Positions 14,673 to 63,836 of a stretch of DNA of 64,000 nucleotides are shown here, in pieces. Made by a program: the position numbers and the translations under genes. Origin of the DNA: Spirochaetae bacterium HGW-Spirochaetae-3 (GTDB lineage Bacteria; Spirochaetota; Spirochaetia; Treponematales; UBA12059); NCBI GenBank assembly GCA_002839315.1, contig PGXV01000005.1, positions 222,016 to 286,015 on the forward strand, in the 5' to 3' direction. Every line of letters starts with the position of its first letter. Positions within the stretch are counted from its first letter, which is position 1. The notes beneath the pieces are model-generated. The model was not told the origin of the DNA, did no database searches, and saw nothing but the letters and a program-made list of their open reading frames with translations.

Positions 14673-14801
14673 TAAGAGGATGAAGAAGAGGGGATCAGCG
14701 GTTCAGCGGTTCAGTTACGGTATCGACAACCGTTAGCCGAACTGATCCACTCATCCCCTGATCCACTCTCTTTCCCGTCTCTTCTTCTCTTATCCTATCC
14801 G
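14673..14801. repeat. 129-bp imperfect palindrome filling the convergent potD/secreted-protein gap (member of the dispersed TCAG-arm repeat family)
   Basis: Left arm: AAGAGGATGAAGAAGAGGGGATCAGCGGTTCAGCGGTTCAG. Centre: TTACGGTATCGACAACCGTTA. Right arm: CTGATCCACTCATCCCCTGATCCACTCTC..TCTCTTCTTCTCTTATCC. Confidence 0.75.
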
Positions 14802-17547: not shown

Positions 17548-17791
17548 GATATATCAGATGGTATACAGTGATGTTTACTGACTATCGTCACCGCCGTCGG
17601 CGGGCAGGCGTTACGTTCGCTCGCCCATCAGGGCGCCTCGGCGAAACGCCGCCGATCTTTTAAAGGACCATACTTCGAGTTCCGCCGTCCTACAGCGACG
17701 CGCCCGATGGAGGGCGCCCGCCATGGCGCGGAACCGATGGGCCGAGCCCCAAAGGGCCCGACCTCCCGCTATTTTTGGAAAGGAGTATGGC

Positions 17792-19432
17792 ATGTACGAT
17801 TCTCTTATATACGGGCAAGAACCCGTTCCGGCGTTGCCGGCTAACGAACCCGTCCGTTCCTACGCGCCCGGATCCCCCGAGCGCGCGGCTATCGACGCCG
17901 AGCTACGCTCGATGGCCGCCGATCCCATCGAGATTCCCCTCGTCATAGGCGGCGAGGAGATCCGGACCGGGCGCCTCAAGGAGATACGGGCGCCGCACGA
18001 CCACTCGCTCGTGCTCGGGCGCTACCACGAGGCGGGCGAGGCCGAGGCCGTCATGGCCGCCGAAGCCGCCGCCGTCGCGTACCGGGGGTGGTCGGAGACG
18101 CCGTTCCAGGAACGCGCCGCCGTGTTCCGAAAGGCCGCCGACCTGATCTCGTCGGGATGGTGGAAGACGCTGAACGCCGCCACGATGCTCGGACAATCCA
18201 AGAACGCGTACCAGGCGGAGATAGACGCGACGTGCGAGACCGCTGATTTCTTCCGTATCAATCCCGCTCTCGCCGAGCGTCTCTATGCCGAACAGCCGCG
18301 TTCGGGGGCCGGAGAGCGGAACCTGACGGATTACAGGCCGCTCGACGGCTTCGTATACGCCGTGACGCCGTTCAACTTCACCGCGATCGCGGCGAACCTG
18401 CCATCGGCGCCGGCCCTGATGGGCAACGTCGTCGTGTGGAAGCCCGCGTCGACGTCGGTCCTGTCCAACTGGCACCTGATGCGGCTGTACAAGGCCGCCG
18501 GACTGCCTGACGGCGTCATTAACTTCCTCCCCGGCTCCGCGAAGTCCATAAGCGCGGGCGTCCTGTCGAGGCCGGACCTCGCGGGGCTGCACTTCACCGG
18601 TTCTACCGCGGTATTCAATAGCCTCTGGAAGAGCGTCGCCGATAATCTGTCGACGTACCGATCCTATCCGCGCCTGATCGGCGAGACCGGCGGCAAGGAC
18701 TTCGTCTTCGTTCATCCCGACGCCGACATGGACGCGGCAATCGCCGCCTGCGTCCGGGGGGCCTTCGAGTACCAGGGCCAAAAATGCTCCGCGGCGTCAC
18801 GGCTATACCTGCCGCGTTCCTCGGCCGCGCGCTTCTTGGAGAGGCTCTCGGAGGAAATATCGAGCATCAGCGTGGGCGCGCCCTCTGATCACGGAAATTT
18901 CGTTAACGCGGTGATCGACGAGGCCGCGTTCGATACCATCGTCGGCTATATAGAGCGGGCCCGGGCGAACCCGTCGTGCAGGATCGTCGCGGGCGGCGGC
19001 TACGATAAGTCCAAGGGGTTCTTCATCTCCCCGACGCTGATCGTCAGCGACGATCCCCGTTCCGAGCCGATGGCTAGCGAGATCTTCGGGCCGGTGCTCA
19101 CCGCGTACGCCTACGACGACTCCGATATGCCCGCCGCGTACGCGTTGGTCGACGAGACGACCCCGTACGCCCTGACCGGCGCTATCTTCGCGAGCGATAG
19201 GTCGACGATCATCGAGGCGACGGGCGCCCTCAGGCACGCCGCGGGGAATTTCTATATTAACGACAAGCCTACGGGAGCGGTCGTCGGCAGGCAGCCGTTC
19301 GGCGGAGCGCGCGGATCGGGTACGAACGACAAGGCGGGGTCGTTCCTCAACCTCGTGCGCTGGACCAGCTCGAGGACGATCAAGGAGACCTTCGCGCCGC
19401 CGACCGATTGGCGTTATCCGTTCATGGGCTAG
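17792..19432 (+). CDS. pruA: L-glutamate gamma-semialdehyde (1-pyrroline-5-carboxylate) dehydrogenase
   Basis: ORF 17723..19432 trimmed to the ATG at 17792 (AAGGAG RBS; 546 aa). Aldehyde dehydrogenase motifs GETGGKD and catalytic YQGQKCSA. N-terminus typical of stand-alone P5CDH. Confidence 0.85.
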   Translation: MYDSLIYGQEPVPALPANEPVRSYAPGSPERAAIDAELRSMAADPIEIPLVIGGEEIRTGRLKEIRAPHDHSLVLGRYHEAGEAEAVMAAEAAAVAYRGWSETPFQERAAVFRKAADLISSGWWKTLNAATMLGQSKNAYQAEIDATCETADFFRINPALAERLYAEQPRSGAGERNLTDYRPLDGFVYAVTPFNFTAIAANLPSAPALMGNVVVWKPASTSVLSNWHLMRLYKAAGLPDGVINFLPGSAKSISAGVLSRPDLAGLHFTGSTAVFNSLWKSVADNLSTYRSYPRLIGETGGKDFVFVHPDADMDAAIAACVRGAFEYQGQKCSAASRLYLPRSSAARFLERLSEEISSISVGAPSDHGNFVNAVIDEAAFDTIVGYIERARANPSCRIVAGGGYDKSKGFFISPTLIVSDDPRSEPMASEIFGPVLTAYAYDDSDMPAAYALVDETTPYALTGAIFASDRSTIIEATGALRHAAGNFYINDKPTGAVVGRQPFGGARGSGTNDKAGSFLNLVRWTSSRTIKETFAPPTDWRYPFMG

Positions 19433-24246: not shown

Positions 24247-24319
24247 GCCGAGATAGCTCACTTGGCAGAGCGGCGCACTCGTAATGCGCAGGTACCGAGT
24301 TCGATTCTCGGTCTCGGCT
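24247..24319 (+). tRNA. tRNA-Thr (anticodon CGT)
   Basis: 73-nt cloverleaf read by hand. Acceptor GCCGAGA/TCTCGGC, D arm GCTC..GAGC, anticodon stem GCGCA/TGCGC with loop CTCGTAA, T arm CCGAG-TTCGATT-CTCGG. CCA not encoded. Confidence 0.93.
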
Positions 24320-28953: not shown

Positions 28954-29024
28954 AAACTCAGTGGTCGCGATGAGGAGCGCCCGGCGTGATTTCATCGCGC
29001 GCGAGTTGTCAGTGGATCCTTGAT
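28954..29024. repeat. hairpin element sharing words with the dispersed repeat family
   Basis: AAACTCAGTGG-[8-bp stem CGCGATGA/TCATCGCG]-GAGTTGTCAGTGGATCCTTGAT. It shares the CAGTGGAT and GAGTTGTC words with the copies at 63.8 kb and 32.7-35.2 kb. Confidence 0.5.
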
Positions 29025-31726: not shown

Positions 31727-32431
31727 ATGCTTAAAGAGGAGCTGATCAAGAAGAGTCCCGTTCGCGTCCTCGAGCGGGGTATCGAGGGCGGGCTCAAGGG
31801 CGGCAATATCGGCGTCATCGCTAGCCGGAAGGGAATCGGTAAGACGAGCGTGCTCGTCCAGCTGGCATTGGACAAGCTGATGCAGGGCAAGAAGGTCATT
31901 CACGTCTCGTTCACCACGCATACGAGCTACGTCATATCGTGGTACGAGAACATCTTTACGGAGCTCGCCAAGAAGAAGAACCTCGAGGATTACTCGAGCG
32001 TGCACGACGACCTTATGAAGAACCGCGTGATCATGAACTTCAACCAGGAAGGCGTGAGCACGGACCAGATACTCAAGTCCCTACGCGCGATGATCGTCGA
32101 CGGCGGATTCGACGCCGACGCGGTGATAGCCGACGGGTTCGACTTCGCGAGGGCCGACGCCGAGCACTTCGACAAGGTCAGCGCCTTCGCCAAGGAGATG
32201 AAGCTCGAGTTCTGGTATTCGTGCACGATGTCCGGCGAGGAGCCACTGCTCGACAAGAAGAACGTGCCCGTCATCCTGCGGCCGTTCCTCGACGATATCG
32301 CGGTCCTGATCGTGCTCGAGCCCAAGGCGGAGTACATACACTTCATCGTGGTCAAGGACCACGGGCGCATGAACCCCGAGGACCTGAACATCAAGCTGGA
32401 CGCGAAGACTCTCCTTATCGCCGAAGCCTAG
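31727..32431 (+). CDS. orphan KaiC/DnaB/RecA-superfamily ATPase-like protein
   Basis: 234 aa, AAGGAG RBS. DnaB/KaiC-style P-loop VIASRKGIGKTSV, and a Walker-B-like hydrophobic strand ending in Asp (DAVIADGFDF). GC visibly lower than its neighbours (55% in the first 60 nt). Confidence 0.55.
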   Translation: MLKEELIKKSPVRVLERGIEGGLKGGNIGVIASRKGIGKTSVLVQLALDKLMQGKKVIHVSFTTHTSYVISWYENIFTELAKKKNLEDYSSVHDDLMKNRVIMNFNQEGVSTDQILKSLRAMIVDGGFDADAVIADGFDFARADAEHFDKVSAFAKEMKLEFWYSCTMSGEEPLLDKKNVPVILRPFLDDIAVLIVLEPKAEYIHFIVVKDHGRMNPEDLNIKLDAKTLLIAEA

Positions 32432-32432
32432 T

Positions 32433-32554
32433 TTTCGCATATAGCGAGGCGTCTACTTCGTCGCGCCCCATTCCGTACCCCTCGACGTGCAATAGCACGC
32501 CGTCGAGGCCCGGAATGGGGCGCTTCTCGTATACATCCTCGCTATGCGCGAAAA
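32433..32554. repeat. long imperfect hairpin unit U1 (~122 nt)
   Basis: Nested stems. TTTTCGCATATAGCGAGG/CCTCGCTATGCGCGAAAA (imperfect). CCCCATTCCG/CGGAATGGGG (10 bp, perfect). CCTCGACG/CGTCGAGG (8 bp). Apex TGC-AATA-GCA. Confidence 0.8.
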
Positions 32555-32564
32555 CCCGTGTTGG

Positions 32565-32690
32565 GGAGGACATACCGAAGCGATCGCTTCGTCTCTCGGC
32601 CCCCCCGTGCCCCTCGACGTGCGATAGCACGCCGTCGTGGCCCGGGGGGCTTCGTTTCTCGCGCTCATCCCCGGTATGATCGAAAGCGCT
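32565..32690. repeat. long imperfect hairpin unit U2, a tandem copy of U1 offset by 132 bp
   Basis: The 37-nt apex block is 34/37 identical to U1. The middle stem is replaced by GCCCCCCCG/CGGGGGGC (compensatory). The outer stem includes CATACCG/CGGTATG. Confidence 0.75.
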
Positions 32691-32695
32691 TGTCT

Positions 32696-32750
32696 GGGGA
32701 GTAATCTGTGATCAGTGGAAGATACGCTATCTTGATAACAGATCACTTCT
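32696..32750. repeat. dispersed palindromic repeat, copy upstream of vapB
   Basis: TAATCTG-TGATCAG-TGGAAGATACGCTATCTTGATAACAGATCAC. Hairpin GTGATC..AAGATA-CGC-TATCTT..GAT(A)AC. Confidence 0.8.
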
Positions 32751-32802
32751 AACAATTGACATTTCATATCGATGCCACTACCGTAGTACATGGAGGCTAT
32801 CG

Positions 32803-33009
32803 ATGAACACTGTCGTCGTTTCAACAAAATACCAGGTAGTCATTCCGAAGGAAATCAGGGACGATATCGGTCTCAAGGCCGGGACGACCATGGAGATAAT
32901 CAATTACGGCAACCGCATCGAGCTGATTCCCCTGCAGCCGATGAAAAGCCTTAAGGGCGTTTTCAAGGGGATTGATACGAATATCGATCGAGACGCGGAT
33001 CGGCTATGA
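32803..33009 (+). CDS. vapB: AbrB/MazE/SpoVT-family antitoxin
   Basis: 68 aa, GGAGG RBS. The N-terminal KYQVVIPKEIRDDIGLKAGT swapped-hairpin motif is typical of AbrB-fold antitoxins. Its stop overlaps the vapC start. Confidence 0.8.
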   Translation: MNTVVVSTKYQVVIPKEIRDDIGLKAGTTMEIINYGNRIELIPLQPMKSLKGVFKGIDTNIDRDADRL

Positions 33010-33380
33010 ACGTCGTCGATTCCTCGTGCTGGCTGGAGTTCTTCTCGGGGAGCGCGGTCGGGGAAACGATCTCACCCTTCATCGAAGACATCGAGGGGCT
33101 ACTCGTTCCTTCTATAACGTTATACGAGGTGTTCAAGAAAATCCTCCAGGAGCTGGACGAGGACAAGGCTCTCTTCGCCGTCGCTCATATGAAGCAAGGA
33201 AGGGTCGTCGAGCTGGACGCCGATCTCGCGATATACGCGGCCAAGGTCGGCAAGGAATACCGGCTGGCGATGGCCGACAGCATCATCTACGCCGTAGCGC
33301 GAAAATTCGGCGCGACGCTGTGGACGCAGGACAAGCACTTCAAGGATCTGCCGAACGTGCGATATTTTAAGAAAGAGTAA
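33006..33380 (+). CDS. vapC: PIN-domain ribonuclease toxin
   Basis: 124 aa. N-terminal VVDSS acidic residue, the central acidic/Thr region, and C-terminal TQDKHF are typical of VapC PIN toxins. 4-nt overlap with vapB. Confidence 0.85.
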   Translation: MNVVDSSCWLEFFSGSAVGETISPFIEDIEGLLVPSITLYEVFKKILQELDEDKALFAVAHMKQGRVVELDADLAIYAAKVGKEYRLAMADSIIYAVARKFGATLWTQDKHFKDLPNVRYFKKE

Positions 33381-33426
33381 TCAGTAATCTGTGATCAGTG
33401 GAAGACACGCTATCTTGATCACGGAT
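33377..33426. repeat. dispersed palindromic repeat, copy immediately downstream of vapC
   Basis: TAATCAG-TAATCTG-TGATCAG-TGGAAGACACGCTATCTTGATCAC. 38/40 identical to the copy at 32700-32739. The first TAA is the vapC stop. Confidence 0.85.
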
Positions 33427-33428
33427 AC

Positions 33429-33481
33429 GTGTGAGTTATGTGTGTGAGTGTAGGATAGCGTGTCCTCACTCACACTCACAC
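33429..33481. repeat. second hairpin with the inverted core (TAGCGTG) and unrelated GTGTGAG-type arms
   Basis: GTGTGAGTTATGTGTGTGAGTGTAGGA-TAGCGTG-TCCTCACTCACACTCACAC. The apex is the reverse complement of the CACGCTA apex of the adjacent copy. Confidence 0.8.
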
Positions 33482-33491
33482 TTCTCCCCCG

Positions 33492-35189
33492 TTACAGCTT
33501 CCCGTCCTCCACGCCGTCCAGCCACGCCTCGATGGGCGCCACGATACGGGCTATGGTGCCGTCGACGAAGGGGTCGTGCAGGTTCGCTGAGGCGACCAGC
33601 CCGGTAAACGGCTTGCTGCCGCCCAGATCGCAGAGCCCCAGGTAATCGGACCAGGCTCTCTCCCTGTCGGTCATCGATTTTCCCCAGAACTCGAAGGCGC
33701 ACACCTGCGCGAGCGTATAGTCGATGTAGTAGAAGGGGTCCTCGAAGATGTGCCCCTGCCTGTACCAGAAGCCGCCTGAAGATAGGAACTCGTCGTCGCC
33801 GTAGTCGCGATGGGGCAGGTACTTCTTCTCGATCGATCTCCACTTCGCATTGCGCTCGGCGGGGCTGGCTCCGGGATACTCATAGACCCAGTGCTGGAAT
33901 TCATCGACTGAAACGCCGTAGGGGATGAACAGGAGGGCTCCGGAGAGGTGGGCGAACTTGTATTTATCGACATCGGCTCCGAAGAAATTCTTCATCCACG
34001 GCCAGGCGAAGAATTCCATGCTCATCGAGTGTATCTCGCAGGCCTCCAGGGTCGGCCAATGGTACTCGGGAAGCTCGAATGAGCGGCTACGGTAGCATTG
34101 GAACGCATGCCCGGCCTCATGGGTCAGGACGTCGACGTCGCCGGCGGTGCCGTTGAAGTTGGAGAAGATGAACGGCGCCCGCTCGGCAGGGACGTAGCTA
34201 CAGTAACCGCCCCCCGCCTTGCCCTTCCGGGTCTCCAGGTCCATGAGTCGGCGATCCAGCATGTAGCCGAAGAATTCTCCGGTTTCCGGCGACATCTCCT
34301 CGTACATCTTCCTGCCGTTTTCGATTATCCATCGCGGATCGCCCTTGGGCTTGGCGTTGCCGGTGAGGAATTCCAGCGATTCGTCGTGGAAAGAGAGCGC
34401 TTCGAGGCCGAGACGCGCGGCCTGGCGCTTCCTGAGCCTCTGCGATAGCGGGACTATCGATTCGTATACCTGCTCGCGGTACGCGGCGACCATGGCGGCG
34501 TCATAGTCCGAGCGACTGAGCCGGGCATAGGCGAGCGGTATGAAATTGGGGAAGCCCAGCTTGACGGCGATGCGGTTGCGAACGCTCACCAATTCGTCGA
34601 AGATACGGTCGAATTCCCCGGAGTTGGCCGCGTAGAAGCCGCTCACGGCCTTGTGCGCCCGTTCACGCGTCGACCTGTCGGCGGACTCGGTGAATGGCGT
34701 CATCTGGGAAAGATTGCGCTCTTCCCCCTCGAACATGATCCTCGCGCTCGCCTTGAGCTTGACGTATTCGCTGGCGAGCCTGTTCTCGGCCTGCAGGTCC
34801 TCGATGACCTCTGGCTTGCAGGTTTTCATCTGCATCTCTGCCAGGCGGAAGAGCTGGGCGCCCCAGCGTTCCTCGAGTTGCCCGCGGAAGGGCGACCTTA
34901 TCAAAGCCTGGTAGAAATCGCTCTTGAGGCCCTCGTAGACGGGGCGCATGCCGTCCATGTAGTCGTTCTCGGCCTCGTAGAACGCGTCTCCGGTGTCTAT
35001 GGTGTGCCTGATCTCGACGAGGGCGTTCATCGACTCGACGCGGTCGCGCAACCCGTTGACGCGCGTCATCACCTCGTCTTGTTCCTCCGCTGAAGCCGCC
35101 TTCGAGAAGGCCGCGATGAGGTCCTTGAACGCCGGTTCTATCTCCTCGAGGGCGGGGCGCGAATAGGTGAAATTATCGAATGTCGTCAT
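33492..35189 (-). CDS. pepF: oligoendopeptidase F family (M3B) metallopeptidase
   Basis: 565 aa, AAGGAG RBS. HEAGHAF zinc motif and M3B-like length and sequence. Confidence 0.85.
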   Translation of the reverse strand: MTTFDNFTYSRPALEEIEPAFKDLIAAFSKAASAEEQDEVMTRVNGLRDRVESMNALVEIRHTIDTGDAFYEAENDYMDGMRPVYEGLKSDFYQALIRSPFRGQLEERWGAQLFRLAEMQMKTCKPEVIEDLQAENRLASEYVKLKASARIMFEGEERNLSQMTPFTESADRSTRERAHKAVSGFYAANSGEFDRIFDELVSVRNRIAVKLGFPNFIPLAYARLSRSDYDAAMVAAYREQVYESIVPLSQRLRKRQAARLGLEALSFHDESLEFLTGNAKPKGDPRWIIENGRKMYEEMSPETGEFFGYMLDRRLMDLETRKGKAGGGYCSYVPAERAPFIFSNFNGTAGDVDVLTHEAGHAFQCYRSRSFELPEYHWPTLEACEIHSMSMEFFAWPWMKNFFGADVDKYKFAHLSGALLFIPYGVSVDEFQHWVYEYPGASPAERNAKWRSIEKKYLPHRDYGDDEFLSSGGFWYRQGHIFEDPFYYIDYTLAQVCAFEFWGKSMTDRERAWSDYLGLCDLGGSKPFTGLVASANLHDPFVDGTIARIVAPIEAWLDGVEDGKL

Positions 35190-35205
35190 GGGAGGCTCCT
35201 TGGAG

Positions 35206-35262
35206 AGAAGTAATCAGTAATCAGTAATCAGTGGAGGATACGCTATCTTGATCACAGATCGC
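35206..35262. repeat. dispersed palindromic repeat between pepF and pgl
   Basis: (TAATCAG)x3-TGGAGGATACGCTATCTTGATCACAGATC. The right arm contains the pgl stop codon (complement of 35252-35254). Confidence 0.85.
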
Positions 35263-35965
35263 TTTCCTTCACGAACGCTATCGCGGATTCCGCGGCCGCG
35301 AGTACGGCGGGGCTTGACCGGTCGCCCCCCGCGAGTCGACGTAACGCGTCCTCCTTGCCGGCCGAGCGTACGATGAAGCGGGTCCTCCGGGTGGAAGCGA
35401 GCGTCGATAGCGATAGGCTGACTCGTTCGCGCGGTTCCGATGGCGCGAGGCATGCGACGGCGACGGTGGCTCCGGCGACGGTTGTCTGGCCGGTGAATAT
35501 GCCTGCCGTATGCCCGTCGGGTCCGAGCCCGAGGTAGCACGCGTCGAAGAGGGGCTCTCCCGGTAGAACGCCGGGAGCGTTCCTGAGCCGTTCGACGAAC
35601 TCCGTCATGCGCTCGATCGCGGCGGCCCGGCCTGATTCGACGCTCCAGCCGACTATCTCGACGGCTCCGGCGGCGAGGGCCGCGGAGAAGGCGTCCCGTA
35701 TCATGGACTCGTTGCGATCCCCGGGGGAGCGGGGGCTCGACCGCTCGTCGCCGACGACCAGCCTCGCCGGTCCGTGCGGCGAGGCCGGGCGGGCGACCAG
35801 CGCCGCGGAGATGGCGCGGTACGCCGGCGTCGGCGTCGTGCCGCCCGCGAGGCAAAAGAGGGGGCTGCGACCCGCCGTATAGGCTGATTCCAGCGCGTCG
35901 ATGAAATCCTCGACGACGGCTCGCGTCCACGCTCCGGCGTCATCGAAGCCTCGCAATGCTATCAT
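35252..35965 (-). CDS. pgl: 6-phosphogluconolactonase
   Basis: ORF 35252..36001 (TTG start), trimmed to the ATG at 35965 (237 aa; start uncertain). CLAGGTTP, GDERSSP and LGLGPDGHTAGIF motifs of the Pgl/NagB family. Confidence 0.75.
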   Translation of the reverse strand: MIALRGFDDAGAWTRAVVEDFIDALESAYTAGRSPLFCLAGGTTPTPAYRAISAALVARPASPHGPARLVVGDERSSPRSPGDRNESMIRDAFSAALAAGAVEIVGWSVESGRAAAIERMTEFVERLRNAPGVLPGEPLFDACYLGLGPDGHTAGIFTGQTTVAGATVAVACLAPSEPRERVSLSLSTLASTRRTRFIVRSAGKEDALRRLAGGDRSSPAVLAAAESAIAFVKESDL

Positions 35966-53060: not shown

Positions 53061-53175
53061 CGGAGGAGCGATCTGTTGGCAGTGATCTGTGATCGGTGGA
53101 AGCGGGGAAGAGAAGTGGTTCAGTGGACGAGTGGAAAAGTTACGCTATCATCCGCTGATTATTGATTACCATGAC
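53061..53175. repeat. composite copy of the dispersed repeat family
   Basis: TGATCTG-TGATCGG-TGGAAG..GGGGAAGAGAAGTGGTTCAGTGGACGAGTGGAAAAGTTACGCTATCATCCGCTGATTATTGATTAC. Confidence 0.7.
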
Positions 53176-63760: not shown

Positions 63761-63769
63761 CGGCGAATA

Positions 63770-63836
63770 CGAGCGGTTCAGTGGATGAGTTGTCGTAACC
63801 GAACCCCTGAACCACTTATTGTCACGGTATTTTTTT
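63770..63836. repeat. dispersed-family hairpin followed by a T8 run (probable terminator)
   Basis: GGTTCAGTGGATGAGTTGTCGTAACCGAACCCCTGAACC (stem GGTTCAG/CTGAACC), then ...CACGGTATTTTTTTT. Confidence 0.6.

Follow-up and report, generated by a model that had tools for sequence, protein, structure and literature searches.

Hairpin repeats with heptamer-built arms in the intergenic spacers of an uncultured spirochaete: a probable lineage-restricted family

The DNA analysed here is a stretch of 64,000 nucleotides (nt), hereafter the window, from contig PGXV01000005.1 (positions 222,016 to 286,015) of Spirochaetae bacterium HGW-Spirochaetae-3. Its subject is a set of short palindromic elements between genes, each composed of a small conserved apex hairpin and of arms made from repeated words of 7–8 nt. 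A gene map was drawn from the open reading frames (ORFs) and from the GC content at third codon positions (GC3), and on this map every copy first reported for the window is intergenic. Four strong copies (c1, c2, c3, and c4) are found around a mazE-like antitoxin gene with its PIN (VapC) toxin gene, an M3 oligoendopeptidase gene, and pgl. The copy c1 lies 50 nt upstream of mazE. The TAA stop codon of the PIN gene (33378-33380) is inside the outermost heptamer of c2, GTAATCA. Directly adjoining c2, in inverted orientation, is c4, which terminates in CACTTCTCC, 4 nt from the M3 stop codon, and c3 carries (TGATTAC)x3 and CTTCTCTCC, finishing at the M3 ribosome-binding site (RBS). Pfam scans of about 55 window proteins showed housekeeping genes, this one toxin-antitoxin pair, and one Smr protein. 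Coordinates are given in Table 1; the strand called "sense" throughout is the reverse complement of the core as it was first noticed.

Table 1. Elements of the window, the neighbouring gene pair, and the spacer compared between contigs (R1 and R2, covariance models explained in the text; MFE, minimum free energy)
Feature	Coordinates	Strand	Core or apex	Score or remark
c1, TGATCA-type arms	32696..32752	-	core AGATAGCGTATCT, 32720-32732	R2 64.1 bits, E 2.6e-15
c2, TGATCA-type arms	33377..33428	-	core 33403-33415	R2 50.5 bits
c4, GTGTGAG/CTCACAC arms	33429..33487	+	core GGATAGCGTGTCC, 33453-33465	R2 31.7 bits
c3, occupying the pgl-M3 spacer	35204..35275	-		R2 59.7 bits
Divergent mosaic copy	53061..53175	-	apex TGATAGCGTAACT, 53138-53150	R1 33.3 bits
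Divergent long hairpin	14673..14801	-	apex CGATACCGTAACT, 14713-14725	MFE -49.3, z -5.4
Weak relative of the 14673 subtype	63770..63815	+	GTTGTCG..TAACCGAACC..CTGAACC	10 nt past stop codon
mazE-like antitoxin and PIN (VapC) toxin pair	32803..33380	+		Pfam MazE_antitoxin 1e-10, PIN 7e-18
pgl-M3 spacer, window	35190-35275
pgl-M3 spacer, L123	9892-10000
pgl-M3 spacer, L126	19629-19718
pgl-M3 spacer, L121	4300-4388

The core GAYACGCTATC matches the window exactly four times, at 32721(+), 33404(+), 33464(-), and 35237(+), where 0.09 matches were expected, and none of 100 shuffled sequences reached four. A first interpretation of this DNA, made without database searches (the sequence-only reading), had proposed a dispersed family of intergenic hairpins with a conserved apex, interchangeable arms, and a mosaic build like that of BIMEs. 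The proposal is borne out. The core is well above chance frequency, and all four matches are in spacers. When the motif was relaxed to a 13-mer with 2 mismatches, seven matches were found against 4.9 expected, which is no enrichment, and for this reason the case rests on the four strong copies. The shorter TACGSTATC has six matches (1.06 expected), with those at 14716 and 53141 added to the four. A chance likeness among unrelated hairpins that form no family would agree with the relaxed count, with the unrelated hairpin at 28954, and with the weakness of three further copies. It is already refuted for the four strong copies by the exact 11-mer count, by their recovery with model R2, and by a 26-nt identity across contigs, both described below, and as an account of the whole set it is scarcely credible.

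Fourteen copies, of which the window and other contigs (designated here by L numbers) gave seven each, were aligned in the sense orientation (alignment A1). One covariance model, R1, was built from all 14 aligned copies, and another, R2, from eight non-window copies only; R2 is the fairer test. With R2, the copies c1, c3, c2, and c4 were recovered at 64, 60, 50, and 32 bits (E 2.6e-15 to 2.9e-6), and the candidates at 53061, 14673, 63770, and 28954 were not recovered in the window. The window search with R1 gave no convincing new copy beyond its training copies. Its match at 34689-34744 falls within the M3 gene and is partial and due to chance, and its scores for 53061 and 14673 come only from a model trained on both of them.

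Eight copies had been claimed for the window. The one at 28954..29024 was rejected, being an unrelated GC-rich hairpin that lacks the core motif and was found by neither model; the window holds four strong copies, which are real, and three divergent ones, which are plausible. Two of the latter, at 53061 and 14673, were accepted as divergent relatives because of their apex TACGSTATC and of the words GTGGTTCAGTGGATGAG and GGCTAACGG, common with contigs L120 and L125. The 53061 copy begins right after the stop codon of a 178-aa gene and combines inner words of the GTGGTTCA/GTGGACGA type with outer words of the GATCAC type. The 14673 copy, made of the words GGTTCAG, GTGGATGAG, and GGCTAACGG, coincides exactly with the 129-bp spacer separating two convergent stop codons. 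The third (63770) resembles only the 14673 copy, as read directly from the sequence, and its R1 score is 8.7 bits with E about 8 (match span 63761-63822).

On the sense strand, the strong copies read (GTGATCT/GTGATCA/GTTATCA)n, the mini-hairpin AAGATA-GCG-TATCTT, TCCAC, and (TGATCAC/TGATTAC)n, with GTAATCA also among the 5' words. Often, though not universally, the element is closed on the outside by purine-rich GGAGAAG at its left end and by CTTCTCC at its right end. The arms are arrays of 7-8-nt words, 1-9 units long (6-9 in L117), and in other copies these words are GTGTGAG or GTGGTTCA. Read in another register, the TGATTAC and TGATCAC units are TTACTGA and TCACTGA, each a 1-nt variant of TAACTGA; the other units are GTGTGAG and 8-mers such as GTGGTTCA. 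Tandem Repeats Finder (TRF) reported arrays of period 7 at 33376-33399 and 35209-35232, and the GC content of the elements is 0.39-0.49.

The alignment supports a common fold. An arm helix of 13 bp, an apex helix of 6 bp, and a 5-nt bulge leave 72.9% of the cells paired, in comparison with 31-41% when the partner is slid by 1-3 columns; 11 pairs are changed on both sides, and none of 500 shuffles matched the observed covariation score. The apex helix is 88% paired and includes AAGA/TCTT as well as AGGA/TCCT variants. The TCCAC after the mini-hairpin is unpaired and is the sole conserved flank in the 14 aligned copies. In the copy with GTGTGAG/CTCACAC arms, the pairing keeps the register of the TGATCA copies, and because of this the arms are interchangeable in a literal sense. 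Folded one at a time, the sequences give z from -2.9 to -5.4 (MFE -27.6 and z -4.3 for c4), with the exception of c3, whose arms are unbalanced. An apex flipped relative to the arms in c4, as compared with L125a, was considered and not adopted: the apex is itself nearly palindromic, and the two orientations give 9 against 10 matches of 15.

Two back-to-back inverted copies with contrasting arms had also been reported, and they were confirmed at 33377-33487, where c2, with TAATCAG/TAATCTG/TGATCAG words around ..GGAAGACACGCTATCTT.., is followed in opposite orientation by c4, with GTGTGAG words around the reverse complement. Both cores of this doublet have the GCGTGTC variant. Such a doublet recalls repetitive extragenic palindromic (REP) elements, in which the sequence of the stem is conserved together with a GTAG tetranucleotide, and the loop is variable. 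The sequence-only reading had suggested REP/BIME elements mobilised by a RAYT (Y1 HUH) transposase; on that account the mini-hairpin with CCAC would be the REP and the c2/c4 pair a REPIN, as described elsewhere (PMC3116915). The elements are indeed extragenic, dispersed, and imperfectly palindromic mosaics, and their core is conserved across genera, as for a hairpin recognised by a protein. The conserved hairpin stem, however, is only 6 bp long and AT-rich, not a GC-rich stretch of 20-40 nt, the arms that would be the REP stems are not conserved, and the GTAG/CTAC tetranucleotide is absent in 14/14 aligned copies. In addition, no Y1_Tnp or other transposase is found among the window proteins scanned, and the copies are mostly single, c2/c4 being the one inverted doublet. 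Membership in the REP/RAYT system fails two defining features, and we regard it as very unlikely.

The placement at gene 3' ends described in the sequence-only reading is nearly right. The elements start 0-10 nt after a stop codon or overlap one and extend from there to the next RBS; that at 35204-35275 is also directly 5' of the RBS of the following gene. The stop codons of pgl, of the PIN gene, and of the L117 gmd and IVP genes are inside the first heptamer; the pgl ORF, for example, enters the left arm of c3 and terminates at the TGA of GTGATCA (35252-35254). In c3, L125a, L117a, L117b, and L117c, forward arrays are found a few nucleotides before the RBS or start codon. In the epimerase-gmd-IVP-fcl operon of L117, each spacer is one element, with the upstream stop in a GTGATCA/GTAATCT word and the RBS after the last TGATYAC. 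Of eight spacers between co-directional genes, seven have the core in sense (one-sided binomial 0.035, computed by hand). The exception in orientation is c1, antisense to both window neighbours and sense to the M3 gene, its neighbour in L125.

This exact span from stop codon to RBS, with the sense orientation in seven of the eight spacers, is what would be expected of a dedicated cis-acting RNA. Such an RNA would be a hairpin at intercistronic positions or 3' ends, acting as a U-tract-independent terminator, an mRNA stabiliser, or a device coupling or insulating translation, and a ribosome-associated or RNA-binding protein might bind to the heptamers. Past the M3 stop codon, moreover, the element of L125 replaces the plain GC hairpin that L123 has, and a phage contig (L145, described below) has a comparable architecture in 8/8 intergenic regions examined, which is hard to view as junk in a phage. 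A translational role has also been proposed for TAACTGA repeats (PMC4679880). Against this reading, the elements are not conserved at orthologous spacers of relatives whose elongation factor G (EF-G) is 90-93% identical, the flanking genes have no common function, and c1 runs antisense to the gene on either side. The hairpins are not followed by a U-tract, and the terminator search called no site on any of the window elements. Ordinary terminators, with a hairpin and T-run, are present at other places in the window, such as after tRNA-Thr. A terminator or small RNA, as put forward by the sequence-only reading, is for these reasons disfavoured, there being also no Rfam match, and the dedicated cis-acting RNA is in our judgement a minority possibility, compatible with the explanation preferred below and not exclusive of it. 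A role of the element as a promoter was rejected, as no sigma-70-like site is present on any copy.

Searches with Rfam at the gathering score over the window matched none of the elements and returned only tRNA-Thr(CGT) at 24247-24319, followed by a canonical hairpin-plus-T-run terminator, and a molybdenum cofactor (Moco)/tungsten riboswitch at 17661-17800 (44 bits), upstream of an aldehyde dehydrogenase-family gene. At E<=1, the elements gave only a spurious mir-466 match on the GTGTGAG arms.

Copies with the exact core were found only in Spirochaetota contigs, aside from one doubtful case (L038) considered below. The metagenome scan with the extended core returned only four real contigs, L117, L118 (same sequence as L119), L119, and L120, and the window, L117, L119, and L120 share the 26 nt ATCAAGATAGCGTATCTTCCACTGAT without a difference. 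The window (GC about 0.64), part of a 368-kb metagenome contig, encodes an EF-G 93% identical to proteins named Spirochaetes/Spirochaetia bacterium, and the UDP-glucose dehydrogenase (UGDH) of L119 (GC 0.54) is 89% identical to a Spirochaetae HGW-3 protein. L120 (GC 0.64) and L125 are syntenic with the window, and their M3 genes are 97% identical to each other; L117 has a GC content of 0.55. Neither the core nor the type-C words matched in the viral scans (IMG/VR), and blastn with c1 gave no match among plasmids (PLSDB) and GenBank phages.

The scan of genome contigs with GGARGAYACGCTATCYT was set aside, as the pattern is too short and almost all of its 111 matches are chance occurrences in coding DNA. 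About a dozen Atribacterota matches to this pattern are the tRNA-Leu(GAG) gene. The 17-mer stands in a conserved 60-nt context in L008, L016, L018, L023, L033, L040, L084, L090, L095, L101, and L102 (Atribacterota), and in the three contigs checked (L008, L016, and L040) it is inside that gene, a coincidence amplified by the presence of the gene in every species. An origin of the core from tRNA-Leu was dropped because the likeness is confined to the selected 17-19 nt and the Rfam tRNA model misses the elements. In L038 (5909-6060), from a planctomycete metagenome-assembled genome, an exact core stands beside (GGCATAG)x3, with a 10-nt tandem array, CGAAACGGAA, of about 6 copies after it; this site may belong to the family, outside the Spirochaetota, or it may match by chance.

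On the turnover of the elements, orthologous loci tell the most. No element was found in the 15-22 kb examined (about 20 kb around the same locus) of relatives with EF-G 90-93% identical (L126-L128, L129, and L130) and of the fully syntenic L123/L124 (M3 78% identical), and none in L175 and L177, relatives of L119 with UGDH 89-92% identical; over the EF-G and UGDH relatives, the stretches covered were 13-22 kb. The pgl-M3 spacer is an example. In L123, L126, and L121 it has the promoter-like motif TTGTSG-17-TATAAC; in the window it is c3, with TGATCA arms, and in L125 it is an element with GTGTGAG arms. In the window and in L125, pgl and the M3 gene are presumably now transcribed together. At the same site, pgl ends at the first in-frame TGA of the element, giving ..AFVKESDL* in the window and ..AFVV* in L125, in comparison with ..AFVLD* in L123. 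On the other side of the M3 gene, past its stop codon, a plain GC hairpin is present in L123 and an orthologue of c1 in L125 and L120; for c1 and L125, orthology was assigned from the common right flank CAAGCG..TCGATCATACCGGGG. The L120 and L125 elements differ by whole words, and synteny stops at the right edge of the element.

Near c1, directly downstream of a 234-aa gene, are two further structures, tandem near-perfect long hairpins of ~127-130 nt (32430-32556 and 32557-32690), with MFE of -75 / -87 kcal/mol on two strands (z -11.6 / -12.8) and no Rfam match. At the orthologous site, one unit is present in L123 and two in L125; the unit is also present in L126, and L121 (Spirochaetes bacterium GWB1_59_5) has five of them in tandem. 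Covariation is seen in the closing stems (GCGCATAGCGAGG/CCTCGCTATGCGC vs GATCATACCGGGG/CCCCGGTATGATC), and the tandem hairpins may represent a structured RNA not described before, or a satellite.

Several accessory genes stand beside the elements. The mazE-vapC pair, flanked by the direct copies c1 and c2, is missing from the syntenic site in L123, L124, and L125 and counts as an insertion in the window relative to these three. In L117, the 23S-IVP gene is between direct copies within the gmd-fcl operon. On the minus strand of L119 (1340-2180), the same ~45-nt leader (CGTGTAGTCAGTGAACAGAAGGTGGCAC) and a small gene come after each of two copies, which together bracket an ORF pair that is nucleotidyltransferase (NTase)-like, to judge from its sequence alone. 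The pair is inside a toxin-antitoxin-like gene island (with a HicB-like antitoxin and an NTase substrate-binding protein) that L175 and L177 lack. Together with the synteny breaks at the right end of the element in L120/L125, and with the gene-rearrangement role suggested for long heptamer arrays (PMC4679880), these cases would agree with elements serving as linkers or attachment sites, between which cassettes such as toxin-antitoxin or 23S-IVP genes are inserted or exchanged by homologous or site-specific recombination. There are, however, only three or four of them, and flanking of this kind is expected by chance, because every gene in these spacers precedes an element anyway. The cassettes do not keep one orientation relative to the elements, being antisense in the window and sense in L119; the window proteins scanned include no integrase, and the aligned copies show no attC-like R/L boxes (RYYYAAC / GTTRRRY). 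Linkers of this kind are therefore held to be highly doubtful.

Words related to those of the arms also occur in phage DNA. The array (TGATTAC)x3 was found in 44 stretches of IMG/VR contigs (L131-L174), with a GC content of about 0.6. One of these, L145 (1-9130; GC about 0.59), is a fragment of a phage genome with genes for capsid, head-tail connector, Gp77 adaptor, and tail-S proteins, and all 8 intergenic regions read in it have the form stop-(GTNNNCA)n-GTAAAGGCAAAAAC-(TGNNNAC)n-RBS-ATG, with at least 10 arrays in 9 kb. The same arrays are present in the related IMG/VR contigs L131, L134, L143, and L148, and the capsid protein of the heptamer-rich phage shares only 44% identity with its counterpart in Brevundimonas phages. 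From these arrays it follows that the vocabulary of the arms is far more widespread than the spirochaete core.

A broader reading, decidedly unlikely in our estimate, would make the heptamer-array hairpins a general stop-to-start device of bacteria and phages, in which the core is the handle of a trans-acting factor and the arms are linkers or a control of re-initiation. With GT..CA/TG..AC constant every 7 nt and flexible in register, linkers might let small cassettes (toxin-antitoxin pairs, IVP genes) or phage modules recombine with the ORFs undamaged; alternatively, the arms might place the upstream stop codon beside the downstream start and so control re-initiation. The arm ends resemble the 3' tail of the 16S rRNA and its complement (GATCACTTCTCC vs GATCACCTCCTT; GGAGAAGTGATC vs AAGGAGGTGATC), where the tail is the general consensus and not this organism's own 16S; the resemblance would be functional if the general device were real.

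Taken together, we consider it somewhat probable that the elements are a lineage-restricted family of short, non-coding, mosaic hairpin repeats of uncultured Spirochaetota, of the heptamer-array kind, with the following mode of spread and role. They would be selfish or near-neutral repeat DNA, comparable to short tandemly repeated repetitive (STRR) or TAACTGA arrays, with an embedded small dispersed hairpin repeat. Arrays would grow and shrink through slippage by 7 nt, and copies would be homogenised or exchanged through recombination between them. Their tolerance at gene ends could be owed to the TGA/TAA stops carried by the words. Transcribed within operons, the RNA hairpin would draw the upstream stop near the downstream start, with the possible effect of protecting 3' ends or of insulating or coupling translation. 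The identity of the 26-nt core across genera suggests that a trans-acting factor recognises the core, or that the spread was recent; such a factor could also account for the spread in place of slippage and recombination.

Some observations weigh against this family reading. The Pfam scans revealed no transposase, RAYT (Y1_Tnp), integrase, or reverse transcriptase in the window, and with them no mobility mechanism, and no target-site duplication, such as a MITE would leave, is visible between filled and empty sites, where spacers are wholly replaced. The bias of orientation (7/8) is weak, and so is that of strand, with 23 G-T vs 13 A-C mispairs slightly favouring the sense strand. Stops in all three frames are found in c3 and in the 53061 and 14673 copies only, and as a universal property they were rejected. 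The heptamer signature with constant CAGT is not enriched in the window (CAGTNNNCAGT, 2 vs 0.55 expected). The sample is small, with 14 copies from 6 independent contig lineages and 64 kb of this genome, and a role at the RNA level is a putative one.

The elements are of practical consequence in any case. They rewrite gene 3' ends, remove promoters (as in the pgl-M3 spacer), and mark synteny breaks, and therefore affect annotation and assembly. Intergenic heptamer arrays (STRR, TAACTGA, and GGGAATC) have been known for decades. The present elements extend the phenomenon to high-GC Spirochaetota and, through the words of the arms, to phage contigs. The sharply conserved 26-nt core might be used to capture a binding factor, close relatives that have or lack the elements are suited to phylogenetic profiling for the responsible gene, and filled and empty orthologous spacers are suited to reporter tests.

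Among known systems, the nearest kinds are the TAACTGA/STRR heptamer arrays and small dispersed hairpin repeats. The STRR heptamers of cyanobacteria reportedly have embedded small dispersed repeats (SDR) in Nostoc. The SDR are said to be hairpins of about 20-27 nt within heptamer arrays, mosaic or nested, of recent turnover, and without a transposase. The spirochaete elements likewise have a core of 19-26 nt, identical across contigs and embedded in arrays, with compensatory changes in the apex. The host phylum is different, and a core-only insertion polymorphism (arms without apex) was not observed in the spirochaete copies.

The TAACTGA repeats are known from marine Beggiatoaceae, some Cyanobacteria, and Bacteroidetes (MacGregor 2015, PMC4679880), where they lie just upstream of start codons, provide stops in every frame in forward orientation, and are sporadic and strain-specific in distribution; a role in translation or gene rearrangement was proposed for them. 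The spirochaete arrays are alike in their tandem 7-nt units with a constant ACTG, since TTACTGA/TCACTGA is (TGATTAC)n/(TGATCAC)n in another register and one base off, and also in the forward orientation near the RBS or start codon, the sporadic and strain-specific distribution, and the indels of 7 nt. They differ in that they are short (1-9 units) and are paired with their reverse complement across a mini-hairpin to give a palindrome, whereas only one indirect repeat was reported in BOGUAY (PMC4679880). Furthermore, the host belongs to the Spirochaetota, has about 64% GC, and keeps canonical RBSs, and the unit is not exactly TAACTGA.

The heptamers GGGAATC of Xanthomonas and GGGGA(T/C)T of Nostoc are located between aligned ORFs, <=50 bp from stop codons or overlapping them (Rehm 2015, PMC4692102), and some are inverted repeats able to form stem-loops. 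They resemble the present elements in this placement and differ in being G-rich and quadruplex-forming with no conserved core, while the spirochaete words are AT-rich and contain GATC and stops. Rho-independent terminators share the hairpin right after a stop codon, in one case in the place of a relative's GC hairpin; the present stems, in contrast, are AT-rich and without a U-tract, and they also occur inside operons just 5' of an RBS. With REP, BIME, and REPIN elements the likeness is in the dispersed, imperfect, mosaic palindromes outside genes and in one inverted doublet, but here the loop is conserved, the stems vary, and the window has no RAYT. The elements are best described as a palindromic spirochaete variant of the intergenic heptamer-array class, built around a conserved small hairpin, and closer to these arrays than to classical REP elements.

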